From the NCBI GenBank assembly GCA_039591855.1, contig JBDHCV010000002.1, positions 1-64,000 on the forward strand: DNA of 64,000 bases. The letters run 5' to 3'. Positions 12,717 to 43,029 of this stretch are shown here, piece after piece (the first letter of the stretch is position 1; every line of letters begins with the position of its first letter). Both the position numbers and the translations under genes were made by a program. This DNA comes from Gemmatimonadota bacterium (GTDB lineage: Bacteria; Gemmatimonadota; Gemmatimonadetes; Longimicrobiales; Gaopeijiaceae). The notes beneath the pieces were generated by a model. It worked only from the letters and a program-made list of their open reading frames with translations. It was not told the origin of the DNA and did no database searches.

Positions 12717-12789
12717 GGGGCCTTAGCTCAGTTGGGAGAGCGCCTGCTTTGCAAGCAGGAGGTCGCCGGTTCGATCCCGGCAGGCTCCA
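12717..12789 (+). tRNA. tRNA-Ala (anticodon TGC)
   Basis: GGGGCCTTAGCTCAGTTGGGAGAGCGCCTGCTTTGCAAGCAGGAGGTCGCCGGTTCGATCCCGGCAGGCTCCA folds as a cloverleaf: 7-bp acceptor stem with one G-U, D-arm GCTCAGTTGGGAGAGC, anticodon loop CTTTGCAAG (TGC), T-arm GCCGGTTCGATCCCGGC. A terminator-like hairpin follows. Confidence 0.9.
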
Positions 12790-12919
12790 CTTTTACAAAG
12801 CTAGGCCCCGTTTGAGGTTACAGCCGCGGACGGGGTCTGGTGTTTCGGCCTGTGAGGCCGATGTGTCCATTTGATGTGTGAAGTGCTCCCCGATCCGCGG
12901 TGGGCTGCACCGTCGCTCT

Positions 12920-13261
12920 CTACTTCAGCTCTCGGAGAACCCTCTCCAGGCTCGGACGCAAGATCGGCACATCCGACACCGCCGTCTCCCAGACGATTTC
13001 GAGATCGACCACGAAGTACTCGTGAATCACCTTGTTGCGCATGCCGGCGATCTGGCGCCAAGGTATCTCGGGGTAGGCGTCGGTAACAGTGCCCGAGACC
13101 TTTCGAGCGGCCTCGCCCAGGACCTGTAGCTGCCGGAGCACGGCGTCCTGCTTCTCCGGATCGGCCCCGAACTGCTCCTCGGACACCCCCTCGACGTACC
13201 GCCCGATGCGATCCACCGCATCGAGCATGTGCTGGACCAGGACCTTGTCAGGATTCGGCAT
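12920..13261 (-). CDS. hepT: HepT-like (DUF86) toxin of a HepT/MntA toxin-antitoxin pair
   Basis: 113 aa with the Rx4HxY motif (RNKVIHEY). Overlaps the upstream nucleotidyltransferase gene by 14 nt. Confidence 0.8.
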   Translation of the reverse strand: MPNPDKVLVQHMLDAVDRIGRYVEGVSEEQFGADPEKQDAVLRQLQVLGEAARKVSGTVTDAYPEIPWRQIAGMRNKVIHEYFVVDLEIVWETAVSDVPILRPSLERVLRELK

Positions 13262-13538
13262 CGAAGAGCACGGTCGCCGAGGCGAGGATCGCCTCCTTCA
13301 TGTGCGGGCTCAGTCCTCGCTCGGTGACCAGGTCCACCTCACGACCGAAGAGCTTGGCAAGCTCGTCTTCGAGCTCGACGAACTCGAAGAACCCCCGACG
13401 TCCGTCATAGTCGACGATCAGATCGATGTCGGAGTCGGGGCGGTCCTCTCCCCTGGCTCCCGATCCGAAGATCCGAAGCCTCCGCACACCATATTCCTGG
13501 CACATACGTGCCAACCCTGATCGGTCGAAGTGAACCAT
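13248..13538 (-). CDS. mntA: MntA-like minimal nucleotidyltransferase antitoxin
   Basis: 96 aa with GSxxxG-type motif IFGSGARGE and DSDIDL, typical of the NTase-fold MntA partner of HepT. Confidence 0.8.
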   Translation of the reverse strand: MVHFDRSGLARMCQEYGVRRLRIFGSGARGEDRPDSDIDLIVDYDGRRGFFEFVELEDELAKLFGREVDLVTERGLSPHMKEAILASATVLFDAES

Positions 13539-13883
13539 GCTCCAATCTCCGCCGCCGGGGGCGATCCGGTCAACCTACAGGCCGGGATCATGCGAACGGT
13601 GGGGCGCTGCTGCCCGGGAGTGGGCCCCTCTCGAATAACTCGGCCCTCGAACGACTTTCACACCTGTATTGGCCTGACGTGACCCCCGAAGTTGCTCCCT
13701 GAAGGTGGACGCCTGCCAACGGGAGAGGGACACTTTCAGGCTCAGTCGAACTCACAAAGGACTGGCTCCGGCAAATCGGGGCGGTTCAGTCCTTCGGACC
13801 GCCGTCACGGCGCCCAAGCAGTGAGCCTGAACGGTCTTCCGAGAACCCCGGGGTAGTTCAGCCCAAGCTCCGGGCCGTCGCCG

Positions 13884-14321
13884 CTATCGCCGCCCACGAA
13901 CGAAGACGTGGTCGAAGTCATCATCGACAACGGTCATTAGCGTCAGCGTATCGCCGCTTAGGTGCACGACCCAGTCCGTATCCAATAGGAGTGGAGGGGA
14001 GTCAGACAGCACAAGAAGCGGCCCTCGCTCCTTAGAGCGGGCTGCCACATCTGTGCCCTGTACCAGAAATGTCCCGCGACCGACCACGGAATCGCCATCG
14101 AAGATAGAGAACTCACGCTCCCCAAAGCGCAGCTGCTGTCCTCGGCCGAGGGTCGTGTTGAAGCCCTCCAAGTGTCCACCGATTGCTGCGGCCCAGTCCC
14201 AATCGCCCACCAGAGAGGTCTCCTCCGATTCCCTCAACTCCCCGCCGCAAGCAACAAGGGCCAAGCCGAAGACCGAAATCAGGGGCCGTCTCAACGGCGA
14301 CTTCATGGCCAGACCCTCCAC
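13884..14321 (-). CDS. Small lipoprotein, putative immunity protein for the upstream HExxH RHS-CT toxin
   Basis: Lipoprotein signal LALVACGGE. Start overlaps the end of the orphan toxin cassette by about 19 nt. Position matches toxin-immunity pairs. Confidence 0.4.
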   Translation of the reverse strand: MEGLAMKSPLRRPLISVFGLALVACGGELRESEETSLVGDWDWAAAIGGHLEGFNTTLGRGQQLRFGEREFSIFDGDSVVGRGTFLVQGTDVAARSKERGPLLVLSDSPPLLLDTDWVVHLSGDTLTLMTVVDDDFDHVFVRGRR

Positions 14322-14830
14322 GAACTCAAGACGCGCTGGGTGTGGACCGCCTGGGCCCTAAGCCAGGGGGGTAGTCCGGCGAGAATGCGGGCCTGATCGG
14401 CGTAGATATCCCTATGCTCACTAACCGCCCTCCCTTGCCTGTGCTGAAGCTCATGCCACGCGGTCATGCCGATATCCACCGCATTGCCTACAGCAAGGTC
14501 GATCCGGACATAACCCCAAGGACCCTGACCGCGATTGCCACCGAGACTACCGGCAGCCACACGGTCGGACCTGTTGGTGAAGACCACGTCCACCTCAAGG
14601 TCTTCGTAGCCTTGGATCGCATCTTTCAATTGCGTCCGGGCTTCGTCGGAGAGTCCCGGTCTAACCAGAACACCCTTGAGGATGTTGATTACCGCACGGC
14701 ATTCGAGATCTTCCCGCCCCTCCTCCTCCTTACACAGCCCAAACGGATCCGAGAAGTTGATCGGATCCCCGCCGGCGTACCCGTAGAGGTTGAGCCCACC
14801 GGCGATCCCAATGGGATCTTGTTGGGTGAA
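14303..14830 (-). CDS. Orphan, 5'-truncated RHS repeat-protein C-terminal cassette: RHS core end followed by an HExxH putative metallopeptidase toxin domain. No ATG; the frame opens straight after a stop.
   Basis: Reverse-strand translation from 14830 gives SIGQFTQQDPIGIAGGLNLYGYAGGDPINFSDPFGLCKEEEG..., the RHS core terminal DPxGL motif, then a CT domain containing MTAWHELQH (HExxH). The track ORF 14303..14629 is the same frame with a TTG pseudo-start. Confidence 0.6.
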   Translation of the reverse strand, partial: FTQQDPIGIAGGLNLYGYAGGDPINFSDPFGLCKEEEGREDLECRAVINILKGVLVRPGLSDEARTQLKDAIQGYEDLEVDVVFTNRSDRVAAGSLGGNRGQGPWGYVRIDLAVGNAVDIGMTAWHELQHRQGRAVSEHRDIYADQARILAGLPPWLRAQAVHTQRVLSSWRVWP

Positions 14831-14836
14831 CTGCCC
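14733..14836. repeat. 104-bp direct repeat copy 1 (encodes the RHS core C-terminal end). About 99% identical to 15841..15944.
   Basis: cacagcccaaacggatccgagaagttgatcggatccccgccggcgtacccgtagaggttgagccc[a/g]ccggcgatcccaatgggatcttgttgggtgaactgccc occurs at both positions with one mismatch. Confidence 0.9.
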
Positions 14837-14982
14837 GATTGACGCACTTCAGCGTAACTCAGCCCGCTAAGTGCCCGACGTTTTTACTCTTGGCCGCTCA
14901 CTTTTTCTGAAATCACTTCGATTTCGCCGATATGCCCTGACGTGGGGCTTTAGGAGCTCTCCGCTGGGCGCGTTTCGGGCCA

Positions 14983-15351
14983 TTATCTACGACCCATCAA
15001 TTTCACCACGGCCGGGATCGAGAATAGCCCCAGCAAGGCGGCCGTGCCCCAACCCAATCCACCCCACCGGACCGACGGAATCGCAACGGCGCTCAGGACT
15101 ACGGCGAGGGTGCACTTCGCAACCAACCACGGGGATCGCCGACTGCCGCTGGCGATGAAGGCGATCGCCGCGAACCCAAACCCAGCCGCAGACACGACGG
15201 CCCTCATAGAGTTCCCGCGGTCACTCAGAGACTCCATGTCGAAGAACACGGGGATGAGAGCGTTAGCCGCCAACCCGATCACGATCGCCGTCATCGCCGA
15301 CGATATCTCTGGCACATCCGCCCCGCGCGAAGTCTCCGGCCCGTGGCTCAT
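14983..15351 (-). CDS. Small integral membrane protein, putative immunity protein for the glycine-zipper RHS-CT toxin
   Basis: 122 aa with 3-4 predicted TM helices. Start overlaps the stop of the upstream cassette by 4 nt (coupled). Confidence 0.4.
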   Translation of the reverse strand: MSHGPETSRGADVPEISSAMTAIVIGLAANALIPVFFDMESLSDRGNSMRAVVSAAGFGFAAIAFIASGSRRSPWLVAKCTLAVVLSAVAIPSVRWGGLGWGTAALLGLFSIPAVVKLMGRR

Positions 15352-16001
15352 CGGTTGACCGCGCCCTGAACCAGTCCGGCGACGAATCCCGCGAGCTCGC
15401 TCCGGCGATTCTCGAACACCTCCATCACCACCCCTCGGAATCGGTCCAGTTCAGCTCTCGGCACGCCTTGCGCCGCGTGGTGAGCCACGAACTCGTCGAG
15501 GTACCCAGGGAACGACTCCAGGGCCTCCCCGGCCACCCCTTCTAGGAGCTGGCCGCCGGCTTCGCCGAGGAATCCAAATACAGCGCCCTGAGCGATGTCA
15601 CCGCCGGACCCAAAGCTGCGCTGATCACCACCTCCCAGGAGCCCCCCGAGTCCTCCGATCGCAGCTTGCCCCATGAGCATCGCCGACTTCCCGACTTTCA
15701 GGGCCGCGAATTGCCCGGAGAGGGCTCCAGTCGCGCCTGCCGTAACAAGTGCATTGCCATTGAACGACCTACTGGCGGCCTGGGACAGGCCCTCGGTAAC
15801 AACCCCGACCACGCCACCGATCACCGCTGGGCACCACGGACACAGCCCAAACGGATCCGAGAAGTTGATCGGATCCCCGCCGGCGTACCCGTAGAGGTTG
15901 AGCCCGCCGGCGATCCCAATGGGATCTTGTTGGGTGAACTGCCCACTCGCCATCCCCCCCGCCGGTGCCGATTCCGGGATCCCCGGGGCCAGCCTCTGCA
16001 T
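15348..16001 (-). CDS. Orphan RHS C-terminal cassette: RHS core end (DPxGL) followed by a glycine-zipper, membrane-active putative toxin domain
   Basis: SGQFTQQDPIGIAGGLNLYGYAGGDPINFSDPFGLC is the RHS core end. The CT is rich in GxxxG repeats (VIGGVVGVV, AIGGLGGLLGGG), typical of pore-forming or ionophore toxin domains. Only about 17 aa precede the core motif, so this is an orphan module. Confidence 0.6.
   Translation of the reverse strand: MQRLAPGIPESAPAGGMASGQFTQQDPIGIAGGLNLYGYAGGDPINFSDPFGLCPWCPAVIGGVVGVVTEGLSQAASRSFNGNALVTAGATGALSGQFAALKVGKSAMLMGQAAIGGLGGLLGGGDQRSFGSGGDIAQGAVFGFLGEAGGQLLEGVAGEALESFPGYLDEFVAHHAAQGVPRAELDRFRGVVMEVFENRRSELAGFVAGLVQGAVNR
15841..15944. repeat. 104-bp direct repeat copy 2 (RHS core end)
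   Basis: See copy 1 at 14733..14836. Confidence 0.9.
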
Positions 16002-16038
16002 TACCCATGCCCGACCTACTCACAACCTGGAGGTCGGC

Positions 16039-16962
16039 ATGGCACACCACACCATGGGCGCATGGGTCGAATCGCACCTAGAATGGCTGGAGGCGAAGGG
16101 ATATGCGAGGGGCACGATCCAATCGCGGCGGGGATACCTTCGGAAGTTCGTCGCTTGGAGCGCTGGACAGGGCGCGACGCAGCCGCATGACTTCGCGCTC
16201 CCGCTCATCGAGGCCTACCGGGTCCACCTCCACACGCTCCGGCGCCGGGACGGTGCTCCGTTGGGCTGGGGTTCGCGGGCGCAACCGCTCCTGGCGATCC
16301 GGGGGCTCTTCCGCTGGCTGACTCTCACCGGGGAGTTGAGCTCGAACCCGGCGGCGGACGTGGAGTTGCCACGTCGGGGACGCCGCCTGCCGCGTCGGGT
16401 GCTCTCCGCGTCCGAGGTCGAGCGGGTCCTCGCCCTGCCGAACATCCGGACCGGGACGGGCCTACGGGACCGCACGATCCTCGAAGTCCTCTACTGGACG
16501 GGGATCCGCCGGGCCGAATGCGCGAACCTCGACCTCAGGGATCTCGACCTGGGCCGTGGCGTCCTGCTGATCCGAGATGGAAAGGGAGCCCGGGACCGGT
16601 TCGTCCCCCTGGGCCGTCGGGTCACCGTGTGGCTGACTCACTACATACGGCGGGGCCGTACGTCCCTCCTCAAGAGCGGCGACCCCGGCGCGCTCTTCCT
16701 ATCCCGGCTGGGAGGCCAGATCAGTGTGAAGCGGCTGGGGGCCATGGTACACGATGCCCTTTGGGCGGCGGGGCTGGGCGGAGGCGGGGCGTGTCACCGG
16801 TTTCGGCACACGGTGGCCACGCTGATGCTGGAAGGCGGCGCGGACATCCGCGACCTGCAGGAACTGCTCGGCCACGAGCAGCTGAACACCACGGCGCTCT
16901 ACGCGCGGGTGTCGATCCAACGACTGCAGGAGGTGCATCGACGCACGCACCCGGCCTGGTGA
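16039..16962 (+). CDS. Site-specific tyrosine recombinase/integrase (XerC/XerD-like)
   Basis: N-terminal SAM-like core-binding domain, catalytic domain with R...HxxR (HRFRHTVAT) and C-terminal LLGHEQLNTTALYARV carrying the Tyr nucleophile. Start at the ATG of MAHHTMGAW; the track ORF begins earlier at a non-ATG codon. Confidence 0.85.
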   Translation: MAHHTMGAWVESHLEWLEAKGYARGTIQSRRGYLRKFVAWSAGQGATQPHDFALPLIEAYRVHLHTLRRRDGAPLGWGSRAQPLLAIRGLFRWLTLTGELSSNPAADVELPRRGRRLPRRVLSASEVERVLALPNIRTGTGLRDRTILEVLYWTGIRRAECANLDLRDLDLGRGVLLIRDGKGARDRFVPLGRRVTVWLTHYIRRGRTSLLKSGDPGALFLSRLGGQISVKRLGAMVHDALWAAGLGGGGACHRFRHTVATLMLEGGADIRDLQELLGHEQLNTTALYARVSIQRLQEVHRRTHPAW

Positions 16963-24008: not shown

Positions 24009-25703
24009 CTACTCCTTGTCGCTCTCTGAGAGGTACTTGACGAGCACGACCACGTTTCGGTCGGTACGTCGGGTATAGGACACCTCGTCCATCAGACTTT
24101 CGACGAGGTGGATGCCCAACCCGCCGATTTCACGCTCGTCGACGGGTTGGGCAGTATCCGGGGAAATGCGGCCAAATGGGTTGAACGGTCGACCGTCATC
24201 GGCCATGCGAACCGCGAGTCGGTCCGAAGACAGCTCGACATGGATGTCGATGATACGCTCGAGGTCATCCTCATAGGCATAGGAAATCACGTTGTTCAGA
24301 AGATCGTCGAAGACGAGCTTCAGACTCCTGCGGACCCGGGTCGGTAGCCCATGCAACTCCGCGAATTCGTCGAACGCACGGTTCACGGCGTCGATCTCTT
24401 CGTAGCGGTTCCGAGCTTCGAGGTGGAGTCTGTGGACGTCGGAAACACCGAGGGCTCGTCCCGCGAACTTGACTGCGAGAACCGTGACGTCATCCGCCTG
24501 CTCTGCGTCAGCCTGGAACCGCCACACGTCCTCGGTCGAGGCCCCCACCACCTCTTCCACGGAGGGCGACTCCTGGGCGCTCAACACCTCCACCAAGCGC
24601 GCCTCCTCGTAGAGGGTCCCCGCTGGGTCCATTGCCTCGGTGACCCCATCCGTATACAGAAAGACGAGATCATCAGGCTGCAGAGTCGTGGACTCTTGGC
24701 CATAGACCAGCCCCTCGACGGCCCCGACCACCGGGCCGTGGCGCGCGTCGAGGCGCACGGGATCACCCCCGTCAGGCTTCACGTAGGGCGGGTTGTGCCC
24801 AGCATTCGTGTACACGAGCGCGCCGGAAGTCACATCGAGGATTCCGAGCCACAGGGTCACGAACATGGCGGAGTCGTTATTCCGCGCGATCTCCTCGTTG
24901 ACGTGGGTCATTATGCTCGCGGGCGAGAAGTCGTTCGAGGCGCGGGACTTGATGAGCGTTTTGGTCACGGCCATGAACAGCGCGGCCGGGACACCTTTCC
25001 CCGACACGTCCCCGACGCAGAAGCAGAAGCGATCCTCGTCGATAAGGAAGAAGTCGTAGAAGTCGCCCCCGACCTCACGAGCAGGCTCCAGTGTGGCGAA
25101 GACCGTGAACTCGTTCCTGTGGGGGTACGGGGGGAACTCCAGGGGCAACATGCTCATCTGGATGTCCCGACCGATGTTCAGTTCGCTCTCCATCCGCTCC
25201 TTTGCGGTGGTGGTCCGACGAAGGTCGTCGAACGATGCTTGCAGCTCCCGGTTCTTGACCGTCAGCTCCTGCATCAATGCGTCCCGGCCCTTTTGCTCGA
25301 TGAGTCTTCGGAGGCGACCGATCACCGAGTCCGTGAGCCCATTCTTCGGTATCTGCACGAGATCGACACCGAGACGCAGGCCAGGGATCCCATCGACTTC
25401 GGCGGGCTGAACGGTGTCGAAGAACGCCTCGGCCATTCCGCGGTCGATCTCATCTCGGACACCAACCAGCTCGAGAACGAACTCTGGCGGCTCCCGATCC
25501 GTGCGGATCCCGACCTCGATCCGACCGTCCTCGGAATGGCGGTCGACCAACCGGATAAGCTGTGATGTGGCGGATGCGATCCGACTTGCCAGCATCCCGT
25601 CTCGAGTCAGCTCCTCGAGCGCGAGCCGAACGTTCCTTCGTCGTTCCCGGACTGAACCGGTAGCCCCTACCGACAACGAGCCGAGCCTGATCATCGCTCC
25701 CAC
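24009..25703 (-). CDS. PP2C-type phosphatase (SpoIIE/RsbU-like) fused to a C-terminal RsbW-like HATPase_c anti-sigma kinase domain
   Basis: PP2C motifs VGGDFYDFFLIDEDRFCFCVGDVSGKGVPAALFMAV and YTDGVTEA. C-terminal ATP-lid GGLGIHLVESLMDEVSY. Coiled-coil N-terminal region as in RsbU. Confidence 0.75.
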   Translation of the reverse strand: MGAMIRLGSLSVGATGSVRERRRNVRLALEELTRDGMLASRIASATSQLIRLVDRHSEDGRIEVGIRTDREPPEFVLELVGVRDEIDRGMAEAFFDTVQPAEVDGIPGLRLGVDLVQIPKNGLTDSVIGRLRRLIEQKGRDALMQELTVKNRELQASFDDLRRTTTAKERMESELNIGRDIQMSMLPLEFPPYPHRNEFTVFATLEPAREVGGDFYDFFLIDEDRFCFCVGDVSGKGVPAALFMAVTKTLIKSRASNDFSPASIMTHVNEEIARNNDSAMFVTLWLGILDVTSGALVYTNAGHNPPYVKPDGGDPVRLDARHGPVVGAVEGLVYGQESTTLQPDDLVFLYTDGVTEAMDPAGTLYEEARLVEVLSAQESPSVEEVVGASTEDVWRFQADAEQADDVTVLAVKFAGRALGVSDVHRLHLEARNRYEEIDAVNRAFDEFAELHGLPTRVRRSLKLVFDDLLNNVISYAYEDDLERIIDIHVELSSDRLAVRMADDGRPFNPFGRISPDTAQPVDEREIGGLGIHLVESLMDEVSYTRRTDRNVVVLVKYLSESDKE

Positions 25704-26791
25704 CTGCAGGCAACGACCGCCGCGTCGTCATGGCGCTTGCCGTAGCGCGACACCACACGATCGGCGATCACGGCGGCGCCATGAAAGCGGAGCTGTGGGT
25801 AGTCCTTGAAGGAGGTTCTCTCCGAGATCCCATCGCTGTGGATCAGGAGAACCTCGCCTTCCTGGAGAGTCGCGGTCTCGACGCGCACTTTCTTGAGTCG
25901 GGTCCCGACCGTTCCAGCGGTAGCGGCGATGCGGCGGGACGTGTCGCCCTCGAGGCGAAGAACCGTGTTCCCCACCGCGGCGTAGCGGAAGGCGCCCGAT
26001 CCCAGGTCTATCCAACAGAGCGACACAGCGGCTCCAACAGTCCGAGCAAGCCTCTCATTCACCTGGATCATCAACTGCTCCAGCTGAAGGGTTCCGCGCT
26101 CTCGGATCAGGCGAACCGCCGCCTTGGCCGCGGCATTCGCCTCACGCCCGTGCCCCATCCCATCCACGACCCCGATCAGGACGCCGCCGTCCGCCTCCGT
26201 GATCGAAACGGCGTCGCCGCTGACAAGTTCTCCCCGGCAAGGGCGGTTGACGAAGGCGAGTTCGAGCGTTGCGGCGGTATCACTCTTTCCCGGGAAACGA
26301 GCCTCTCCGCGCGTGGTGCCCCGCTCCGCGAATGCGTCACTGTGAGCCGACGCGACCGCAGCGGACCGATACCGCGACGATGAGTGACGAGAGCCCCTCC
26401 ACTTCCGCACGATCACCTTCGTCCCGACCCCGACTTTGGAGGTCAGATCGAAGTCATCGACCATCCGCCGCACACCGGGAAGACCGAGTCCCAGCGTTCC
26501 ACTGGAACTGAAGTGGTCCTGCAACGCCTCGTCGACGTCCTCGATCCCCGGTCCGCGATCCGTGACCGTGACCTGAAGTCCGGATCGGGATCCCTCCTGG
26601 ACCTCCTCGAGCAGGACGATTCCACTCGTGGCGTATTTGAGTACGTTGGTGGCGAGTTCCGAGACTACGGTCCCAAGGGCCTTGGCCTCGGACTCCTCGA
26701 ACCCTGCGCTCCGTGCGATGGCCACCGCGGAACCCACTGCGTGGGCGACGTCCGCGTCCCGTCGTACCCGCTGTATGGCCCTACGCGTCAT
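25691..26791 (-). CDS. RsbT/RsbW-like HATPase_c Ser kinase domain fused to a C-terminal PP2C (SpoIIE-like) phosphatase domain
   Basis: N-box ELATNVLKYA, G1 VTDRGPGI, G2 GTLGLGLPGV. Then PP2C motifs LIGVVDGMGHGREA and LIHSDGI. Confidence 0.75.
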   Translation of the reverse strand: MTRRAIQRVRRDADVAHAVGSAVAIARSAGFEESEAKALGTVVSELATNVLKYATSGIVLLEEVQEGSRSGLQVTVTDRGPGIEDVDEALQDHFSSSGTLGLGLPGVRRMVDDFDLTSKVGVGTKVIVRKWRGSRHSSSRYRSAAVASAHSDAFAERGTTRGEARFPGKSDTAATLELAFVNRPCRGELVSGDAVSITEADGGVLIGVVDGMGHGREANAAAKAAVRLIRERGTLQLEQLMIQVNERLARTVGAAVSLCWIDLGSGAFRYAAVGNTVLRLEGDTSRRIAATAGTVGTRLKKVRVETATLQEGEVLLIHSDGISERTSFKDYPQLRFHGAAVIADRVVSRYGKRHDDAAVVACRWER

Positions 26792-30537: not shown

Positions 30538-31827
30538 TCAGTCGAGTTCACCAGGGAGCCCCGCTTCGCCCCCCCCACTCCCCTTCGCCAGCCTCGCTAC
30601 GTCGATCCCCGTCGCGTTCTCCACCTGTTCCAACATGGTGATCGCGCTCTTCGAGAGGTTCTTCACGTAGTTTGGGAGCCCCTCCCCGTCGCCGCCGTCG
30701 AGAATGGTAAGCTTGTCCACCCGCAGGTTGTCGGCCATGACCCGAGTGACCTTGTCCAGGAGGCCCGGCAACATCTGGATCAGAAACAGGTCGCTGGTCG
30801 CGCCGCCGGCCACCTGCTTCTGCATCAACTCCACCGCCTCCGACATCGCCCTCCCGTTTTCGAGAATCCGAGAGGCCTTCCCCTCGGCCTCCATGGCGAG
30901 CGCCTTCTGCCGGGCCTGTGCCGGCACGACCGTATCAGCTTCCTCGCGATGGGCGCTGACCTCGACTCTCTTGGCCTCCAACTCGATCTCGCGCTCAGCT
31001 CGGGCGATCTCACCTGAGATAGCGGCCCGCCCCTCCGCCTCGTTCGCCTTCGCCGCGAGGTCCGCACGTTCTACAGCGAGTTCGTTCTCCCGGAGGATCA
31101 CCACCCTCTCCGAGGCGATCTCGGCCTCTCGGCCGATGCGGGTCTGCTCGGCCGCAACCTGGCGGGCCTCAGCCTCAGCCTCTGCCTCGGCAATACGGGC
31201 GTCCCGGCTCACCTCCGCAGTCCGCTTGCGGCCGATGGCATCCAGATATCCCTGGTCATCGGTGATGCTCTGGATCTGGAGGAAGTCCAGGACAATGCCG
31301 AGGCGGTTCAGGTCCTCGCGAGCACGCTCCACGACCTTCCCTGCGATTTCCAGGCGCTGGGCATTGGCCTCCTCCGGACTTACCGACGCGACGATGCCGC
31401 GAAGCGAACCCTCCAGCACCTGCCGCGCGGTCTTGTCCACGGCCTCCGTGCCCTTGCCAAGGAAGCGCTCCACAGCACTCTCAAGCCCCTCTTCGGGCCG
31501 CCCCGCCAGCTTCACGTTGGCCCGGCCCTCTATGTTCACGGGAATCATCCCGGCACAGAGAACCTTCGAGAGGTGAATGTCGACCGTGCGGGTCGTAAGG
31601 GGCAATCTCATCACCGACTCCACGAACGGTCGCTTGAAGCCCCGACCGCCCCGGATCACCCGGTACCCGATCGAGGTGCCGTCAGCGAGCTTGCGGGACC
31701 GCCCCGCCAGAATCACGACCTCGTTGGGCTGGCAAATCACCATGTTCGACTTGATGAACACGATGAGGAGGAACACGGCGAGTATCCCAACCCCGAGGGA
31801 AATCCCGATCAGTTGTGCTGAGTCCAT
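30538..31827 (-). CDS. SPFH/Band-7 family protein, flotillin-like (YqiK/FloA-like)
   Basis: N-terminal TM ISLGVGILAVFLLIVFI, SPFH domain, then long Ala/Glu-rich coiled coil (EAEAEAEARQVAAEQTRIGREAEIASE...), characteristic of bacterial flotillins. Confidence 0.75.
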   Translation of the reverse strand: MDSAQLIGISLGVGILAVFLLIVFIKSNMVICQPNEVVILAGRSRKLADGTSIGYRVIRGGRGFKRPFVESVMRLPLTTRTVDIHLSKVLCAGMIPVNIEGRANVKLAGRPEEGLESAVERFLGKGTEAVDKTARQVLEGSLRGIVASVSPEEANAQRLEIAGKVVERAREDLNRLGIVLDFLQIQSITDDQGYLDAIGRKRTAEVSRDARIAEAEAEAEARQVAAEQTRIGREAEIASERVVILRENELAVERADLAAKANEAEGRAAISGEIARAEREIELEAKRVEVSAHREEADTVVPAQARQKALAMEAEGKASRILENGRAMSEAVELMQKQVAGGATSDLFLIQMLPGLLDKVTRVMADNLRVDKLTILDGGDGEGLPNYVKNLSKSAITMLEQVENATGIDVARLAKGSGGGEAGLPGELD

Positions 31828-31857
31828 TGTCCGTCCTCTCCGATCTCGGAGCTCGGT

Positions 31858-33297
31858 CTACACGTTGAAATAGAGCGCAAACTCGGCAGGGTGCGGACGA
31901 AGCCGCACGTATTCGAGTTCGTCTGTACGCTTGGTCTGGATCCAGGTATCGATCACGTCCCTGGTAAAGACGTCTCCCCGCAGCAGGAACTCGTGGTCCC
32001 GCTCCAAGGCGTCCAGTGCCTCGCCAAGGCTCGCGGGGGTCCGTCCGATGGCCTTGCCACGCTCTGTCTCCGCCAGCGCATATAGATCCTCGTCCACCGG
32101 GTCCGGTGGCTCGATATCGCTGAGCACGCCATCCATTCCCGCCATGAGCAGGGCGGCGAATCCCAGGTATGGATTGCAGGAGGGGTCGGGGGTACGGAAC
32201 TCGATGCGCTTCGCCTTGGGACTGGACCCCCCGACCGGAACTCGTACACAGGCGCTTCGGTTGCGGCCCGAGAAGATCAGGTTCATCGGAGCCTCATACC
32301 CGGGCACCAGACGCCGGTAGGAGTTGGTGGTCGGCGAGCAGATGGCACAGAGCGCCGGCGCGTGCTTCAGGAGTCCGCCGATGAACTGTAGGGCGAACGG
32401 ACTCAGGTCAGCGTATCCGCCCTCCTTGTAGAACAGATTCTGCCCGGCCTTCCAGAGGCTCACGTTCATGTGCATGCCCGAGCCGTTTTCCTGTAGAAGG
32501 GGCTTGGGCATGAAGGTAGCGGTCTTCTTGTAGCGGTCGACGACGTTCTTGACGGTGTACTTGTACTTTATCGCCGCGTCGGCCTGAAGCAGGAGGGTGC
32601 CGAAGCGGAATCCGATCTCACACTGCCCCGCAGCACCCACCTCGTGATGGTGCAGTTCCGGCTCCAGCCCCACCTGCTGCAGCACGTTGGAGATCTTGGA
32701 TCGCAGGTTGTTGTACTGATCGACCGGTGGCGCCGCGAAGTAAGCCTGCTTCCGGCCGGCCTGGTGCCCCAGACTCGGGCCCCCTTCCTGCCCACCTGAG
32801 CTCCAGAACGCAGCGGCGCTGTTCAGGAAATAGTAGCCGTGCTGGGTCGCCTGATCGAAGCGGACCTCATCGAACACGAAGAACTCGATCTCGGGTCCGA
32901 AGAAGACCTGGTCGGCCAGCCCGAGTGACCGGGCGAGTCGTTCAGCTCGCCCCGCGATCCCTCGTGGATCCCTGGAGTAGGGGGTCCGACGGATCGGATC
33001 GGCGATGTCGCAGAAGACGGAGAGCGCCGGATCGTCAAAAAAGGGATCCTTGAATACCGAGGCCGGGTCCGGCATCAGCAACATGTCGCTCTCGCTGATC
33101 TTCTGGAACCCCCGAACGGACGACCCGTCGAAGGCAAATCCGTTTCGGAACGTGTCCTCGTCCACGGCTTCGCTGGGTACGGTCAGGTGCTGAAGCGTGC
33201 CGATGAGATCCACGAACTTCAGGTCGAGAAACCGGATTCCGTCCTCTCGGATCATCTTCATCACGTCGCGCGCCGTGGCGCGCCGGTCCCTAGACAT
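31858..33297 (-). CDS. glnA: Glutamine synthetase type I
   Basis: 479 aa. GS motifs FDGSSVRGF, ATFMPKPLLQENGSGMHMNVSLWK, NSYRRLVPGYEAP, and the adenylylation-loop region. Confidence 0.9.
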   Translation of the reverse strand: MSRDRRATARDVMKMIREDGIRFLDLKFVDLIGTLQHLTVPSEAVDEDTFRNGFAFDGSSVRGFQKISESDMLLMPDPASVFKDPFFDDPALSVFCDIADPIRRTPYSRDPRGIAGRAERLARSLGLADQVFFGPEIEFFVFDEVRFDQATQHGYYFLNSAAAFWSSGGQEGGPSLGHQAGRKQAYFAAPPVDQYNNLRSKISNVLQQVGLEPELHHHEVGAAGQCEIGFRFGTLLLQADAAIKYKYTVKNVVDRYKKTATFMPKPLLQENGSGMHMNVSLWKAGQNLFYKEGGYADLSPFALQFIGGLLKHAPALCAICSPTTNSYRRLVPGYEAPMNLIFSGRNRSACVRVPVGGSSPKAKRIEFRTPDPSCNPYLGFAALLMAGMDGVLSDIEPPDPVDEDLYALAETERGKAIGRTPASLGEALDALERDHEFLLRGDVFTRDVIDTWIQTKRTDELEYVRLRPHPAEFALYFNV

Positions 33298-33309
33298 CAG
33301 CGTCCCCCG

Positions 33310-33645
33310 TCACGACAGAATCCGCGGACCGCGTTCGCCGGTCCAGATCGAGATGACCTCATGCAGCTCCGTTACGAAGATCGATCCCCATCCACCGATC
33401 TCGTGAGCCCCGTCGGAGATGGCCTGGATCGCCCGCTCCAGGTCGGCGTCGGTAACCGCTAGTTCGACCCGCACACGCCGAAACAGGCTCACCTTCTGCT
33501 CCACCCCCCGGTATTTGCGCTGCTCCGTTCGCGGCGCGGTGCCCATTACGGTCGAAGCGGTGAGCTTGGGGAATCCCGCCTCGTGTAGACTCGTCTTCAC
33601 GGACGGAAGTTGTTCCGGCCGGATCACGGCGACGACCAGCTTCAT
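33310..33645 (-). CDS. glnK: Nitrogen regulatory protein P-II (GlnB/GlnK)
   Basis: MKLVVAVIRPEQLPSVKTSLHEAGF and a T-loop region (TEQRKYRGVE, uridylylation Tyr). 112 aa from the internal ATG; the track ORF has a 23-codon upstream extension. Confidence 0.85.
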   Translation of the reverse strand: MKLVVAVIRPEQLPSVKTSLHEAGFPKLTASTVMGTAPRTEQRKYRGVEQKVSLFRRVRVELAVTDADLERAIQAISDGAHEIGGWGSIFVTELHEVISIWTGERGPRILS

Positions 33646-33661
33646 GGCCAGGTCCTCCCGC

Positions 33662-34948
33662 TCAATCAGTAGTGAAGATCTGGAAGCCGCTGTACGACTC
33701 CAGACCGTGCTCATCGATGTCCAGCCCCCTCAGCTCCGTCTCATGGGAAACTCGGAGTCCGACGGAGGCATCGATGGCCTTGAAGACGATCCACATCACG
33801 ATCGCGACGAACGCAAGACAGGCGACTACTCCCAGGGTCTGGATCCCCAACTGGCCGAACCCACCCCCAAAGAAAAGGCCGTCGGAAGGAGAACCGAATG
33901 CAGCCTGACCAAAGAGGCCCACCGCCAGCGTACCCCAGATTCCAACCATCCCGTGTACAGGAACTGCGCCGACCGGGTCGTCGATGCCGAGACGGTCGAG
34001 GAGTTCGATCCCGTACACGATCAGAATCCCGCCTGCAGCTCCGATCCAAATCGCGCTTCCCGGACCTACCGCGGCGCACGGCGCAGTGATCGCCACCAAC
34101 CCGGCCAGGGCCCCGTTGAGGGCGATGGTCAGGTCGGGTCTTCCGTACTTCACCCACGCGAAGACCATGGCCACGATCCCGCCCATGCTCGGGGCGAGTG
34201 TGGTGTTCATGGCGACCCGCGCGACCACGTCGGGTTCAGCCATCCCCAGAGTGGACCCGGCGTTGAACCCGTACCATCCGAACCAAAGGACGAGCACCCC
34301 CAGGGTGGCCAGGGGCATGCTGTGCCCCAGGATCACGTTGGACGAGCCGTCCTCATTGAATCGGCCGATCCGGGGGCCGAGCATCCAGGCCCCGACCAGA
34401 GCGGCCACCCCGCCCACAGCGTGAACAACCGTGGACCCGGCGAAGTCATGGAAGCCCAGCCCGGCCAGCCATCCCCCACCCCAGACCCAGTGCCCCACGA
34501 TCGGGTAAACAAAGGCGGAGATGAGGAATGAGTAGGCCAGATAGGCGGCAAACCTCATGCGCTCCGCAACCGCTCCCGCCACGATGGTTGCCGCGGCTCC
34601 GGCGAACACCGCCTGGAACAGCCAGAAAGCTTCCAGAGGGAGGCCGTCCACGGGTGATTCGGCGCCGATCATGAACCAGCCCCGAGTCCCGAACAGGGCG
34701 CCGTCGCCCCCGTACATGAGAGCGTACCCGAAGATGAAGTAAGCCAAGGCCGCGAAGCAGAAGTCCAAGACGTTCTTGGTCAGGACGTTCGCAGCGTTCT
34801 TCGTGCGCACGAGCCCCGCTTCGAGCATGCCGAACCCCGCCTGCATGAAGAAGACGAGGAACGCCGCCAGCAGAACCCATAGTGTGCTGAGACCGTCGAA
34901 CGCCTGACCGGCCTCCTGAACGGATGCGGCTAGCACCGGAACCTCCAT
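33662..34948 (-). CDS. amtB: Ammonium transporter
   Basis: 428 aa, 11 TM, Amt signatures (FLVFFMQAGFGMLEAGLVRTKNAANVLTKNVLDF; twin-His region). Confidence 0.9.
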   Translation of the reverse strand: MEVPVLAASVQEAGQAFDGLSTLWVLLAAFLVFFMQAGFGMLEAGLVRTKNAANVLTKNVLDFCFAALAYFIFGYALMYGGDGALFGTRGWFMIGAESPVDGLPLEAFWLFQAVFAGAAATIVAGAVAERMRFAAYLAYSFLISAFVYPIVGHWVWGGGWLAGLGFHDFAGSTVVHAVGGVAALVGAWMLGPRIGRFNEDGSSNVILGHSMPLATLGVLVLWFGWYGFNAGSTLGMAEPDVVARVAMNTTLAPSMGGIVAMVFAWVKYGRPDLTIALNGALAGLVAITAPCAAVGPGSAIWIGAAGGILIVYGIELLDRLGIDDPVGAVPVHGMVGIWGTLAVGLFGQAAFGSPSDGLFFGGGFGQLGIQTLGVVACLAFVAIVMWIVFKAIDASVGLRVSHETELRGLDIDEHGLESYSGFQIFTTD

Positions 34949-37359: not shown

Positions 37360-40050
37360 TCAACCGCCGCCTTCGCCGCTCCGGAGCCGTTCGGTCCAGT
37401 TCATGACCACCACCGCTTCGCCGGTGGCCCCGGATCTCCCGCGGAGGACCATGAGGAAACGCTGTCCGTCGTCCGACACGTCGTACTGGGTGCTGAAGAT
37501 GTTGGACCCGAAGTCGAGCCCGGAGAAGAGGACCTGCTGGCGCGTCACACGGAACGACGGCTCGGTGACCACCGAAGCCGCGACGATGTCCCCGTTTCCG
37601 TTCCGGTAGAAGAGTTCCCCGCCCGAACGCCCCCACGCGGGCTCCGTTCCTCCCTCCGTGGACACCCGGTAGACGGCCGCGTCGGCATCGGGAAAGGGGC
37701 GGACGTAGACCTCGTTGGATCCCCCCTCGTCGGAGACGTACGCCAGCCAGCGGTGGTCCGGGCTCACGGCCGGAGTGAGCTCGCCCGCCTCCGTGGCCAC
37801 CAGGGGCGTGACGGTGGTCGTCGCCCCCATCTCCACCAGGAGGATGTCCCCGGCGCCGGGCTCCTGGTTGTCCGTCCGGATCACGAGGCGCTGGGCGTCC
37901 ACGGGGACCACCTCGAAGATCGCCCGGGTCTCGGGGATGACCACGGCCTCCGGTAGGCCTGTGGCGTCCACACGCTTTCGGTAGACAGCGCCCACGCTGG
38001 CTCGATCGGAGATGAAGTAGACCGCCTCCCCCGAGGGGGACCAGTTCAGCCGCCAGTTCAGCTCGCCTTGGAAGGTGTGGCGAACCGCATCTCCACCCCC
38101 GAGCGGCTTGGTCCAGATGTGCGTCCCCTCCTCGGACTGGACCACGGCGGCCAACACCGACCCGTCCGGAGAGATCCGTACGCCCGCGAGCGTGCTCCTC
38201 ACGTCCGGCAGGAGCCCATCCTCGGTGGCGCCGGTCCGATCCACCCAGACGAGGTCGTCCACCGCGTCCCCGGCTCCCCGGTAGACGAGGGTGCCCGCCT
38301 CGGCCAGGGCCAACCGAGCGGCGCCGTACGCCACCACGTCCACCGTCTCCTGAAGAGCTAGAGGGGCGCCGGTGACCTCGAGCCGGTCGGCGTCGAAGCG
38401 GGCCGCGAGCAAGGTTCCGTCCGCCTGAGCCACCACCACGTGTCCGGTGGGGGAGTAGCGGGCGTAGACCCCCTGGAAGAGGGCCTGGATCCGGGAGTTG
38501 GCGAAGTCGACGACGGCGACCTGATAGGCGTCGAGATTCCGGGAGGCCATGGGGATGACCGTCATCAGCGCGCCTCTTCCCGAGGGCAGGGCGTCCACCC
38601 ACGCGTGGGTCCGTTCTCCCTCCGACAGGGTGGTGATGCGCTCCCGGCTCCCGTCTTCGGGTGAGACCCTCCACACGCCATCCAGCATGGAGACGTAGAT
38701 GAGTCCGTCCTCGCCCCAGTCCACGCCCCCTCCATACAGGCTCGGATCCTGGACGCCGGAATCCACGAGCGTCCTGGGGAGCCCACCGGCGATAGTGACG
38801 ACCTTCAGTTCCAGGAGCGTCGTCAGAAAGGCCAGGGACTCCCCGTCAGGGGAGAACGACACGCAACAGCGCACGTCGCCGGTGCCTCGCACCGGCACGG
38901 GGTCGAGTCTGTCCCGCTCCCGGATCATCACCTGGGGCAGCGCTCCGGTCACGCTGGCGAACGCGATCCGGCTTCCGTCCGGGGAGATGGCCAGCCCCGG
39001 ATCGAAGAAGGCTCCGCCGCCTGCCTCCCGGTCGCCAGGGAGGTCGATGATGAAGCGGGTGACGTCCCGGTCGGGCTCCGGGGGACGCCCGGTCAGGAGT
39101 GCGGCGACCGCCACGGTGAGGATCCCGACGGCCACGGCGAGACCAGTGGTGACTGGCGTCCATGTCCGGGCTGGGGCAGCCCCGGGACGGCCCGGGATCA
39201 TCCGGCCCGTGAATCCGGGGTCCAGGAGGGCGGCCCGAAAGTCCCCGGCGGTCTCGAATCGGTCGGCCGGGAGCTTCTCCACGGCCTGCGCCACTGCCGC
39301 CGCCACGTTGGGCGGGACCGACCTGCGGAGCCGGGTCACCGGGCCCGCTTCCTCGGTGAGAATCTTCATGATGACCTGCTGGACCGACGCGCCGGTGTGC
39401 GGCGGGGCGCCGGTGAGCATCTCGTAGAGGACGCTCCCCAGGGAATAGATGTCGGCCCGGGCGGTCAGGTCCCGGTCCGCCGTCGCCTGCTCCGGGCTCA
39501 TGTAATGCGGCGTCCCCAGGCTGAGCCCCGTCTCCGTCATGCGCCCTTGGCCGGCGGCGCTCACGGCCAGCGCGATCCCGAAGTCGGCGACCACGGGCCG
39601 GCCGTCCTGCAGCAGGATGTTCTCCGGCTTGATGTCCCGGTGGATGATCTCCTTGCGGTGGGCGTAGTCCAGGGCGTCGGCCACGTCCCGGGCGATGCGA
39701 ACGGCCTCTTCCACCCCCAGTTGCCCCTCCCGGTCGATGCGCTGCCGGAGCGTCTCGCCCTCGATGTAGGGCATGACGTAATACAGGAACGAGTCCGCTT
39801 CGCCCGAGTCGAAGAGCGGCAGGATGTGGGGGTGCTGCAAGTTGGCCGTGGTCTTGATCTCCGCCAGGAACCGCTCGGCACCCAGGACGGCGGCGAGTTC
39901 GGGACGGAGGACCTTGATGGCGACCTTGCGGTCGTGCTTGAGATCCTCGGCCAGGTGGACGGTGGCCATGCCGCCCTGGCCGAGCTCCCGCTCGATGCGG
40001 TAGCGGTCGGCCAGAGCTGCGGCGAGGCGCGAGGGCTGTGTATCGCTCAA
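37360..40050 (-). CDS. Ser/Thr protein kinase fused to a C-terminal TolB-like beta-propeller (WD40-like) region, paralog 1. Probable TTG start overlapping the stop of the upstream paralog; the track ORF extends to 40146.
   Basis: Kinase subdomains ELGQGGMATVHLAED, DRKVAIKVL, HRDIKPENILL, DFGIA, SPEQ. One TM after the kinase domain, then repeated propeller blades. Confidence 0.7.
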   Translation of the reverse strand: MSDTQPSRLAAALADRYRIERELGQGGMATVHLAEDLKHDRKVAIKVLRPELAAVLGAERFLAEIKTTANLQHPHILPLFDSGEADSFLYYVMPYIEGETLRQRIDREGQLGVEEAVRIARDVADALDYAHRKEIIHRDIKPENILLQDGRPVVADFGIALAVSAAGQGRMTETGLSLGTPHYMSPEQATADRDLTARADIYSLGSVLYEMLTGAPPHTGASVQQVIMKILTEEAGPVTRLRRSVPPNVAAAVAQAVEKLPADRFETAGDFRAALLDPGFTGRMIPGRPGAAPARTWTPVTTGLAVAVGILTVAVAALLTGRPPEPDRDVTRFIIDLPGDREAGGGAFFDPGLAISPDGSRIAFASVTGALPQVMIRERDRLDPVPVRGTGDVRCCVSFSPDGESLAFLTTLLELKVVTIAGGLPRTLVDSGVQDPSLYGGGVDWGEDGLIYVSMLDGVWRVSPEDGSRERITTLSEGERTHAWVDALPSGRGALMTVIPMASRNLDAYQVAVVDFANSRIQALFQGVYARYSPTGHVVVAQADGTLLAARFDADRLEVTGAPLALQETVDVVAYGAARLALAEAGTLVYRGAGDAVDDLVWVDRTGATEDGLLPDVRSTLAGVRISPDGSVLAAVVQSEEGTHIWTKPLGGGDAVRHTFQGELNWRLNWSPSGEAVYFISDRASVGAVYRKRVDATGLPEAVVIPETRAIFEVVPVDAQRLVIRTDNQEPGAGDILLVEMGATTTVTPLVATEAGELTPAVSPDHRWLAYVSDEGGSNEVYVRPFPDADAAVYRVSTEGGTEPAWGRSGGELFYRNGNGDIVAASVVTEPSFRVTRQQVLFSGLDFGSNIFSTQYDVSDDGQRFLMVLRGRSGATGEAVVVMNWTERLRSGEGGG

Positions 40051-42716: not shown

Positions 42717-42913
42717 GGCGGGGGGATTCGAGGATTGGCGCAAGATTCGCCTCGCGCAGGTAGGTCCGCAAGTAGTCAGACGCCGGAAGGCGCCGTGGGG
42801 CCGATGCTTCTGACGGGCCCGGAGTCCACGTCCCGGTTGCAGGTACGTACCGGTGTCCACTTGGGCCCGATATTGGGCCCCATCAGGGCTGCAGATCCTG
42901 GCCTCGCCGGGCG

Positions 42914-43029
42914 ACAAGAACGGCAGATCGTGCTCTCTACCAACGAGTTAGACGTGTTTTGCCGTGATTCGGACTAACCGATTATCGATTTGCAGGCAGG
43001 AGGTCGCCGGTTCGTTCCCGGCAGGCTCC
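42914..43029 (+). repeat. Composite tRNA-derived repeat, copy C (tRNA-Ala 3' half at 42988..43029 with 2 mismatches). Flanks are also homologous to copy A over about 75 bp on each side.
   Basis: gacaagaacggcagatcgtgctctctaccaacgagttagacgtgttttgccgtgattcggactaaccgattatcgatttgcaggcaggaggtcgccggttcgttcccggcaggctcca. Upstream gtgtccacttgggcccgatattgggcc... and the downstream hairpin aagccccgcagtcggttcggctgcggggctt match the copy A flanks. Confidence 0.8.

Follow-up and report, generated by a model that had tools for sequence, protein, structure and literature searches.

A probable globin-coupled stressosome operon of a Gemmatimonadota bacterium with kinase–phosphatase gene fusions in both tiers

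We analysed a 64,000-nucleotide stretch of DNA from a Gemmatimonadota bacterium (GenBank assembly GCA_039591855.1, contig JBDHCV010000002.1, positions 1 to 64,000; hereafter the window), in which two adjacent genes encode fusions of a GHKL-type ATPase domain and a PP2C phosphatase domain in opposite order. Genes were called by a GC3-based method, and domains were assigned with Pfam, NCBIfam and sequence matches to PDB entries. The two fusion genes, which we call genes 4 and 5, belong to a run of closely packed genes on the minus strand, from about 34.9 kb to 19.7 kb (Table 1). Genes for a membrane sensor, a globin-coupled RsbR and an RsbS-like protein stand before them, and genes for an RsbV-like protein, a channel-like protein and a NUDIX protein follow. 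The locus is probably the core of a Vibrio-type globin-coupled stressosome operon, in which both tiers have been compacted by gene fusion.

Neighbouring genes along the operon either overlap or are separated by very short gaps. Overlaps of 4 nt join the RsbR gene to the RsbS gene and the channel gene to the NUDIX gene, and the RsbS gene shares 11 nt with gene 4. Gaps of 8 nt and 19 nt separate the RsbV-like gene from gene 5 and from the channel gene, respectively, and an AAGGAG sequence lies 9 nt 5' of the GTG start of the RsbV-like gene. The 13-nt overlap of genes 4 and 5 given in the first-pass annotation of this DNA applies to the longest open reading frame (ORF), which starts at GTG 25703. 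The likely start of gene 5 is ATG 25694, because its homologues begin with MIxLG, and this leaves a 4-nt ATGA overlap. Promoter and terminator scanning between 19 and 36 kb found fewer sites than in shuffled sequence and was uninformative. The G+C content of the window is 63–70%.

Table 1. Genes and domains of the minus-strand run in the window, listed 5' to 3' along that strand (aa, amino acids)
Feature	Size or part	Position	Strand	Basis
amtB, glnK (P-II), glnA and Band-7/SPFH gene, in this order at the start of the run and followed by a 154-aa ORF (position covers amtB to Band-7/SPFH)		30538-34948	minus	
Membrane sensor, dCache_1 + HAMP + RsbR/YtvA-type STAS	619 aa	28242-30101	minus	Pfam, NCBIfam
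Globin-coupled RsbR, Protoglobin + STAS	303 aa	27266-28177	minus	Pfam
RsbS-like single-STAS protein	162 aa	26781-27269	minus	PDB matches
Gene 4, predicted rsbT::rsbX fusion	366 aa	25691-26791	minus	HATPase_c_2 then PP2C
Gene 4, RsbT-type GHKL Ser/Thr kinase domain	aa 13-130	26402-26755	minus	HATPase_c_2 2.3e-13
Gene 4, variable interdomain linker	aa 131-175	26267-26401	minus	alignment of homologues
Gene 4, RsbX-type PP2C domain	aa 176-364	25700-26266	minus	MtX/RsbX matches
Gene 5, pseudokinase, coiled coil, RsbU-like PP2C, RsbW-like kinase	564 aa	24009-25703	minus	
Gene 5, N-terminal degenerate RsbW/SpoIIAB-like (GHKL) domain without ATP lid	aa 1-136	25296-25703	minus	
Gene 5, long linker helix, probable dimeric coiled coil	aa 140-183	25155-25286	minus	AlphaFold2 (AF2)
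Gene 5, RsbU/RssB-type PP2C domain	aa 198-415	24459-25112	minus	SpoIIE 1.1e-50
Gene 5, RsbW-type kinase/anti-sigma-like domain	aa 424-557	24033-24434	minus	HATPase_c_2 1.3e-22
RsbV-like anti-sigma-factor antagonist (STAS)	110 aa	23668-24000	minus	TIGR00377
Cyclic-nucleotide-binding K+-channel-like protein	457 aa	22275-23648	minus	Ion_trans, cNMP_binding
APH/TCAD9-kinase-NUDIX protein	866 aa	19678-22278	minus	

Both fusion ORFs lie on the minus strand at the coordinates that the first-pass annotation had given, and Pfam bore out their domains. Gene 4 carries HATPase_c_2 (aa 13–130, 2.3e-13) followed by SpoIIE/PP2C (aa 201–364, 1.6e-13), and gene 5 carries SpoIIE/PP2C (aa 222–413, 1.1e-50) followed by HATPase_c_2 (aa 432–556, 1.3e-22). 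Catalytic motifs are intact in all four of these domains. The kinase domains are of the RsbT/RsbW type, also as previously proposed. Since HisKA is missing and the best solved relatives are SpoIIAB and RsbW, the ATPase domains can be read as anti-sigma-type Ser/Thr kinases. A histidine-kinase identity was considered and rejected on the same matches, with HATPase_c_2 as the best-scoring family.

The two architectures recur widely, far beyond what chance would produce. Among 195 database clusters that matched gene 4, architecture was read for the best 120, and at least 118 of these showed PF13581 plus PF07228 in proteins of 350–390 aa. The gene 5 architecture (PF07228 plus PF13581, about 560 aa) was present in 120 of the 120 best protein clusters. 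Genes 4 and 5 co-occur on the same contigs, and stood side by side in six direct look-ups. Their nearest genome-resolved relatives are metagenome-assembled genomes (MAGs) of Gemmatimonadota with the same neighbourhood (59–61% identity for gene 4, about 71% for gene 5); one 70% identical fragment is labelled Planctomycetota, and an identical gene 5 product is encoded on a 3.9-kb JGI metagenome contig (P0121). Annotation pipelines already name such fusions "ATP-binding SpoIIE family protein phosphatase", and the fusions themselves are neither rare nor exotic. The two genes had been described as reciprocal fusions, but they are not permutations of each other: their PP2C domains are 26% identical and their kinase domains barely align (E 0.011). 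In each protein, the kinase is joined instead to the phosphatase that opposes it in the same tier.

The phosphatase domain of gene 4 matched Moorella MtX (3zt9, 2.7e-19) and B. subtilis RsbX (3w40, 6.9e-11) in the PDB, its SpoIIE match was far weaker than these, and the phosphatases of RssB and Rv1364c were unmatched. With about 190 aa and no regulatory N-domain, it resembles RsbX (199 aa) and MtX (193 aa). It also contains a GN motif (G274-N275), the signature that sets the RsbX class apart from other bacterial PP2Cs (PMC4524716), at a position where the gene 5 phosphatase has GH. Alignment of 23 gene 4 homologues (34–63% identity) revealed invariant residues in the kinase domain (N-box E45/N49, G1 box D78-G80-G82 and G2 box G98-G106) as well as in the phosphatase domain (D193, D210-G213-H214-G215, G274-N275, D320-G321 and D355-D356). 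The linker between them varies in sequence and length among the same homologues, and no domain match was found in it.

Further support came from the genomic context. A scan with one genome per species returned at least 589 related loci, and 84 loci were examined by a phmmer census using the domains of the window. The gene order was RsbR-RsbS-T-X in all 84, and the gene 4 counterpart stood directly after rsbS in every locus examined. T and X formed a single ORF in 29 of 81 loci, joined by an in-frame linker of 21–73 aa (63–219 nt), and were separate abutting genes in about 52 loci, with an X of about 200 aa. Separate genes were found in Cyanobacteria, Acidobacteriota, Chloroflexus, Planctomycetota, Nitrospirota and others; fused genes were found in Gemmatimonadota, Halieaceae, Aeromonas salmonicida, A. 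sobria and A. dhakensis, Rhodoferax, Undibacterium, Pseudomonas sp. Pc102, Polyangiales and Acidimicrobiia. In a rough neighbour-joining tree of T plus X, drawn with no support values, the fused forms fell into at least two groups interleaved with unfused forms, which suggests that the fusion arose more than once.

The outputs encoded 3' of the fusion differ, being a PP2C-kinase protein in the window and a hybrid histidine kinase plus a REC-HD-GYP protein in Aeromonas and Pseudomonas sp. Pc102. Because different, unrelated outputs follow it, the T::X protein can be assigned to the stressosome tier and not to the RsbV tier. The R-S-T-X order is constant whether T and X are separate or fused, and gene 4 is therefore predicted to be the stressosome switch kinase RsbT fused to the reset phosphatase RsbX. 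The phosphatase of gene 4 had initially been taken for an RsbU-type enzyme activated by the RsbT fused to it; the MtX and RsbX matches, GN motif, size and synteny make it RsbX-type, and the RsbU equivalent is the PP2C of gene 5. No description of an rsbT::rsbX fusion was found in the literature that we searched, which did not include the comparative paper of Pane-Farre et al. 2005, so that an earlier mention is possible; as a recurrent variant, the fusion goes beyond the literature searched. In the Actinomadura loci L058, L062, L063 and L080, a separate RsbT-like gene is followed by a longer protein with T-like and X-like domains, an arrangement that suggests duplication plus fusion.

Upstream of gene 4, the operon encodes the candidate sensor tier. 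Over aa 14–291, RsbR matched the Vibrio vulnificus protein VvRsbR (7o0i_B) at 1.3e-95, in addition to the Pfam families Protoglobin (1.6e-31) and STAS (1.1e-12). VvRsbR is the sensor subunit of a stressosome described as an oxygen sensor (Heinz et al., PMC9237108), and the globin RsbR of the window is probably a stressosome haem/O2 sensor. RsbS matched VvRsbS (7o0i_a, 1.3e-18), Listeria RsbS (6.9e-18) and B. subtilis RsbS (1.8e-15). It has Gly at the position of Bacillus Ser59, and so does VvRsbS. This position is occupied by a residue other than Ser or Thr in 26 of 32 fused T::X loci versus 19 of 41 unfused loci (Fisher p=0.003, uncorrected for phylogeny). The phospho-acceptor positions of RsbR, S201 and T235 (Bacillus T171 and T205), are conserved, and both are kept in 31–32 of 32 fused loci. 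Since RsbS lacks the canonical serine, the most likely phosphorylation substrate of gene 4 is RsbR, at S201/T235.

The number of STAS proteins, put at three in the first-pass annotation, is four; the fourth is the membrane sensor at the 5' end of the stressosome genes. It scored 1.8e-13 for dCache_1, 9.6e-15 for HAMP and 2.3e-13 for STAS in Pfam, and 1.1e-24 for YtvA_fam in NCBIfam (aa 484–611). Its gene is kept 5' of the globin RsbR gene in L001, L005–L007, L009, L010, L013, L015 and L087. The protein is probably a membrane-anchored RsbR paralogue, and may be a ligand-sensing subunit of the stressosome. At the position of RsbS Ser59 and RsbR T205, it appears to have Glu (LDE, read by eye).

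We then considered gene 5 and its partner. The PP2C domain of gene 5 matched P. aeruginosa RssB (3eq2, 3.5e-22, in an alignment that takes in the linker) and Rv1364c (4.7e-12), and its residues D214, D232, G302-H303, D352-G353 and D404-D405 are invariant among 37 homologues. The C-terminal domain matched the NCBIfam family RsbW (2.7e-14) and B. subtilis RsbW (6m36, 3.8e-9), and residues N471, D502 and G527-G530 are invariant in the same alignment; it is predicted to be an RsbW-type kinase/anti-sigma-like domain, hereafter the W domain. The adjoining STAS gene product (TIGR00377, 1.8e-27; STAS, 5.3e-22) has the SpoIIAA-type motif DYISSAGL, with Ser54 as the putative phospho-acceptor. The W domain and an RsbV-like gene always co-occurred in the loci examined. 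The earlier proposal of a two-tier STAS-based cascade, here a stressosome plus a partner switch, is supported.

Gene 5 also contains a third domain that the first-pass annotation had missed, at its N-terminus (aa 1–136). It is a predicted, catalytically dead version of the RsbW/SpoIIAB-like GHKL fold. RsbU_N (PF08673) was sought in gene 5 and six related N-termini at E<=5, and none was found. The domain is followed by the linker helix (aa 140–183), which was predicted in both AF2 models and leads into the GH-type PP2C with its catalytic residues intact. Residues L143, E146, N151, E153 and L154 of this helix are invariant among the 37 gene 5 homologues, and the linker motif SR[DE]EL...KN.EL also precedes HisKA in relatives.

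A word-indexed search with the N-domain profile yielded only 26 short fragments, which gave no architectures. A full hidden Markov model (HMM) scan of 1.84 billion representatives yielded 690 relatives, in which the domain was always located at residues 1 to about 148. According to a Pfam census of 85 long relatives, the domain that follows is HisKA in 69, SpoIIE/PP2C in 8, adenylate/guanylate cyclase in 4, GGDEF in 2, EAL in 1 and HD in 1. In the loci examined, ORFs bearing the pseudokinase stood directly after rsbX or T::X in 20 cases out of 20. Homology to this domain (hhalign 99.1%, E 1.3e-18) extends to the N-termini of the hybrid kinases encoded after T::X in Aeromonas, Pseudomonas and Rhodoferax. 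This pattern, always N-terminal, with the same linker and only directly after rsbX, is typical of a dedicated input domain, and the pseudokinase is thus a candidate for a dedicated stressosome-coupling input module. An RsbW-like pseudokinase as a common head of stressosome outputs goes beyond the literature searched. In Halioglobus (L040, 10968–17347), R-S-T-X is followed by a pseudokinase-headed hybrid histidine kinase, a REC-PP2C protein, a Na/Pi-family transporter, an RsbV-like protein and a standalone RsbW-like protein; this locus is an unfused version of the cascade.

As for the output of the cascade, the observation that no sigma gene lies nearby was upheld, in that about 60 ORFs across the 64-kb window gave no match to any sigma-70 family Pfam domain. 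Likewise, no sigma-70 family domain was found beside the module in L001, L002, L040 and L085–L088. The gene that follows the RsbV-like gene encodes a protein with Ion_trans (1.3e-22) and cNMP_binding (2e-12) domains in Pfam, and this channel is a candidate downstream partner by association only. Among 13 loci carrying the module, the RsbV-like gene adjoins a membrane transport gene in 10, the exceptions being L009, L010 and L087. The transport gene encodes a cNMP-binding channel in the window, L001, L005, L006 and L088 (Gemmatimonadota-type, plus one MAG labelled Planctomycetota), and a Na/Pi-cotransporter-family protein in L002, L008, L040, L085 and L086 (Halieaceae-type). Because these loci come from few lineages, the adjacency is a lead and not evidence. 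In L088, the channel gene is in turn followed by another STAS gene of 110 aa. A standalone RsbW-like protein with 48% identity to the gene 5 W domain is encoded in the closest MAG, L005 (1472–2023, minus strand), divergently from amtB; no counterpart of this paralogue was found in the window.

A more speculative proposal, which we consider distinctly unlikely as it stands, is that the RsbV-like STAS protein gates the adjoining membrane transport protein with no sigma factor involved, and that the dead N-domain is an RsbT mimic docking outputs onto the stressosome. If true, it would link an O2-sensing stressosome directly to ion flux, and would explain signal passing in Gram-negative stressosomes that lack RsbU_N.

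From the domain identities, catalytic motifs, gene order, conservation, N-domain fold and modular distribution computed above, we infer complex formation, binding partners, direction of activation and output as follows, a reading that we consider more likely than not. RsbR, its membrane dCache-HAMP-STAS paralogue and RsbS would form a STAS scaffold, on which the T domain of gene 4 would be held. The activity of T toward S201/T235 of RsbR would change upon loss of O2 or in response to a periplasmic ligand, and the tethered X domain would reset the scaffold. Owing to the T::X fusion, one polypeptide would therefore both phosphorylate the scaffold and erase the mark, with a 1:1 stoichiometry and co-localisation of writer and eraser enforced. 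The pseudokinase head of gene 5, in place of the RsbU_N of Bacillus, would sense which state the stressosome is in. To do so it would pair with a released T domain or, as an RsbT mimic, dock on the STAS domains of the scaffold. Its linker helices would then dimerise and switch on the RsbU-like PP2C, which would dephosphorylate the RsbV-like STAS protein, and the C-terminal W kinase would re-phosphorylate Ser54. The output would be the phosphorylation state of the RsbV-like protein and/or a partner held by the W domain, and the target may be encoded elsewhere or be one of the adjacent membrane proteins.

Several points weigh against this proposal. Tethering X to T puts the departure of T from the scaffold in question, and the Gly at the Ser59 position of RsbS means that the Bacillus mode of release through RsbS phosphorylation cannot apply as such. 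There is no RsbT structure in the PDB, and the assignment of RsbT in gene 4 rests on family, motifs and synteny. The full-length AF2 model is of only moderate confidence between domains (pTM 0.50), and the window offers no sigma factor as the output of the cascade.

Alternative explanations were weighed against the same data. It is hardly conceivable that the fusions are assembly or frameshift artefacts joining separate genes, because both architectures recur together in many genomes, and this explanation was rejected. Two loci would speak for it: the close Gemmatimonadota MAG L013 (3248–4263) has T and X in different frames, and in L086 (5916–7004) T and X were called as split, shortened genes. 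The fused ORFs of the 29 loci, with their in-frame linkers, nevertheless include isolate genomes and complete chromosomes (the isolates with the fusion are Aeromonas salmonicida ATCC 33658, A. sobria, A. dhakensis, Undibacterium and Pseudomonas sp. Pc102), and more than 100 protein clusters carry the fused architecture. The splits in L013 and L086 may be either assembly frameshifts or real secondary fission. Very improbable, too, is the model of the first-pass annotation, in which gene 4 joins RsbT to its RsbU-type target for intramolecular activation and gene 5 is the reciprocal copy. The kinase-PP2C order is as it described, and Bacillus RsbT does activate a PP2C. However, the RsbX-class phosphatase of gene 4, with its GN motif, lacks a regulatory N-domain and a coiled-coil linker; X is a separate gene right after rsbT in about 52 loci, which is the canonical rsbRSTX module; the T::X fusion is present in loci that lack both RsbV and RsbW; and the domains of the two genes are too dissimilar, in both the PP2C and the kinase, to be reciprocal copies.

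Both fusions might act instead on the RsbV-like STAS protein as SypE-like regulators with opposite set-points, leaving RsbR and RsbS merely as binding sensors. Vibrio fischeri SypE combines an N-terminal RsbW-like kinase with a C-terminal PP2C, which act antagonistically on a single STAS protein, SypA. Gene 4 shares this domain order and logic, and the missing phospho-serine of RsbS would also fit. SypE has, on the other hand, a central receiver domain, a single STAS substrate, no RsbR/RsbS scaffold and a PP2C outside the RsbX class, whereas the linker of gene 4 is short and variable with no receiver domain match. T::X is conserved with RsbR-RsbS irrespective of an RsbV gene, the two phospho-acceptors of RsbR are retained in nearly every fused locus, and it is the W domain, not T::X, that co-varies with RsbV; we therefore regard SypE-like action as improbable. 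A rival account of the pseudokinase carries more weight, though we still judge it unlikely: the domain would be no more than a remnant with a role in dimerisation or scaffolding, or would pair with the W domain of its own polypeptide, and gene 5 would receive its signal through T-dependent phosphorylation. SpoIIAB/RsbW-type kinases are dimers. Moreover, RsbT-dependent phosphorylation was proposed by Heinz et al. for downstream proteins without RsbU_N, and Moorella MtT is reported in PMC4976288 to phosphorylate its downstream cyclase. The domain is, however, no less conserved in histidine kinases and cyclases devoid of a W domain; it is N-terminal in every case, the same linker motif always comes next, and in the loci examined the domain occurs nowhere but immediately after rsbX, all of which favours an input module.

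We compared the proposed stressosome cascade with known systems, whose building blocks and overall logic it shares. The closest parallel is the O2-sensing stressosome of V. vulnificus and V. brasiliensis (PDB 7O0I; PMC9237108, PMC4976288), with which it has in common the globin RsbR, the Gly of RsbS, a kinase and an RsbX-type phosphatase directly after rsbS, and a variable output module next to them without sigB. It differs from it in that T and X are one polypeptide, that there is an additional dCache-HAMP-STAS paralogue, and that a PP2C-kinase fusion and a STAS protein make up the output, whose Vibrio counterpart is the PAS two-component pair VvD1-D2. Downstream modules of eleven kinds, PP2C phosphatases included, have been described for globin rsbRSTX modules, in which the RsbX homologue is a single-domain phosphatase (PMC9237108). 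According to Heinz et al., most of the downstream proteins lack RsbU_N, and binding of VvRsbT to its presumed output was undetected (PMC9237108). The RsbR-S-T-U-V-W-sigmaB-RsbX pathway of B. subtilis resembles the present one in its two tiers, its catalytic motifs and the helical linker between input domain and PP2C. In contrast to that pathway, T is fused here to X and U to W, a pseudokinase replaces RsbU_N, RsbS lacks Ser59 and the operon lacks a sigma gene.

HsbR of P. aeruginosa and CrsR of Shewanella oneidensis (PMC6482189) likewise unite an input domain with a PP2C and a GHKL kinase/anti-sigma domain in a single polypeptide, and a STAS antagonist gene adjoins theirs. Their input is a phosphorelay-fed receiver, whereas that of gene 5, in which Pfam gave no match to a Response_reg domain, is a pseudokinase placed after a stressosome module. 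The targets of HsbR-HsbA and CrsR-CrsA, namely RpoS, FlgM and HsbD, are encoded elsewhere (PMC6482189); the missing sigma gene near gene 5 is therefore not unusual. M. tuberculosis Rv1364c (PAS-PP2C-RsbW-STAS; PDB 3KE6) likewise has a PP2C and a kinase/anti-sigma domain, but its STAS domain is fused in, its input is PAS and it is unlinked to a stressosome. As for the head of gene 5, RsbT binds RsbU_N, which governs outputs of the PP2C, kinase or GGDEF type via a coiled-coil linker (PMC12143880), and it is established that PP2Cs, histidine kinases and GGDEF proteins acting downstream of stressosomes exchange this N-domain (PMC12143880, PMC9237108). RsbU_N-headed outputs such as Moorella MtG and proteobacterial kinases (PMC12143880) thus resemble the pseudokinase-headed proteins in having an N-module, a coiled-coil linker and interchangeable PP2C, HisKA or GGDEF domains after rsbT/rsbX. 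The pseudokinase of gene 5 differs in fold from the four-helix RsbU_N.

The locus addresses the question of how stressosome signals are passed on outside Firmicutes. A natural fusion of the kinase to its reset phosphatase sets limits to models that require RsbT to leave RsbX by diffusion. The conserved pseudokinase module, with about 690 cluster representatives, always comes first in the protein encoded after rsbX, irrespective of the type of output enzyme. These hypotheses are directly testable because the parts occur in the culturable Aeromonas salmonicida ATCC 33658, Pseudomonas sp. Pc102 and Undibacterium.

Other features of the run and of the window were recorded. The amtB, glnK, glnA and Band-7/SPFH genes lie on the same strand directly 5' of the stressosome genes and are linked to them in L001, L005, L009 and L010, in a different order in L009 and L010; this linkage hints at a connection of nitrogen assimilation to the stressosome pathway in the lineage concerned. 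At the other end, the APH/TCAD9-NUDIX gene travels with the cluster in L001, L005, L006, L009 and L088, and is adjoined by inositol-monophosphatase genes in L001 and L088. Positions 12717–16962 of the window have the look of a small integrated element, with a tRNA-Ala gene (12717–12790), a HepT/MNT-type toxin-antitoxin pair (12920–13261 and 13248–13538), several ORFs that lack a family match, a tyrosine integrase gene (15898–16962) and a lower G+C content of about 0.63. On the minus strand at 37360–42917, two large tandem Hanks-type Ser/Thr kinases of 928 and 956 aa carry C-terminal PD40/WD40-like beta-propeller repeats, and their ORFs as called overlap by about 100 nt.

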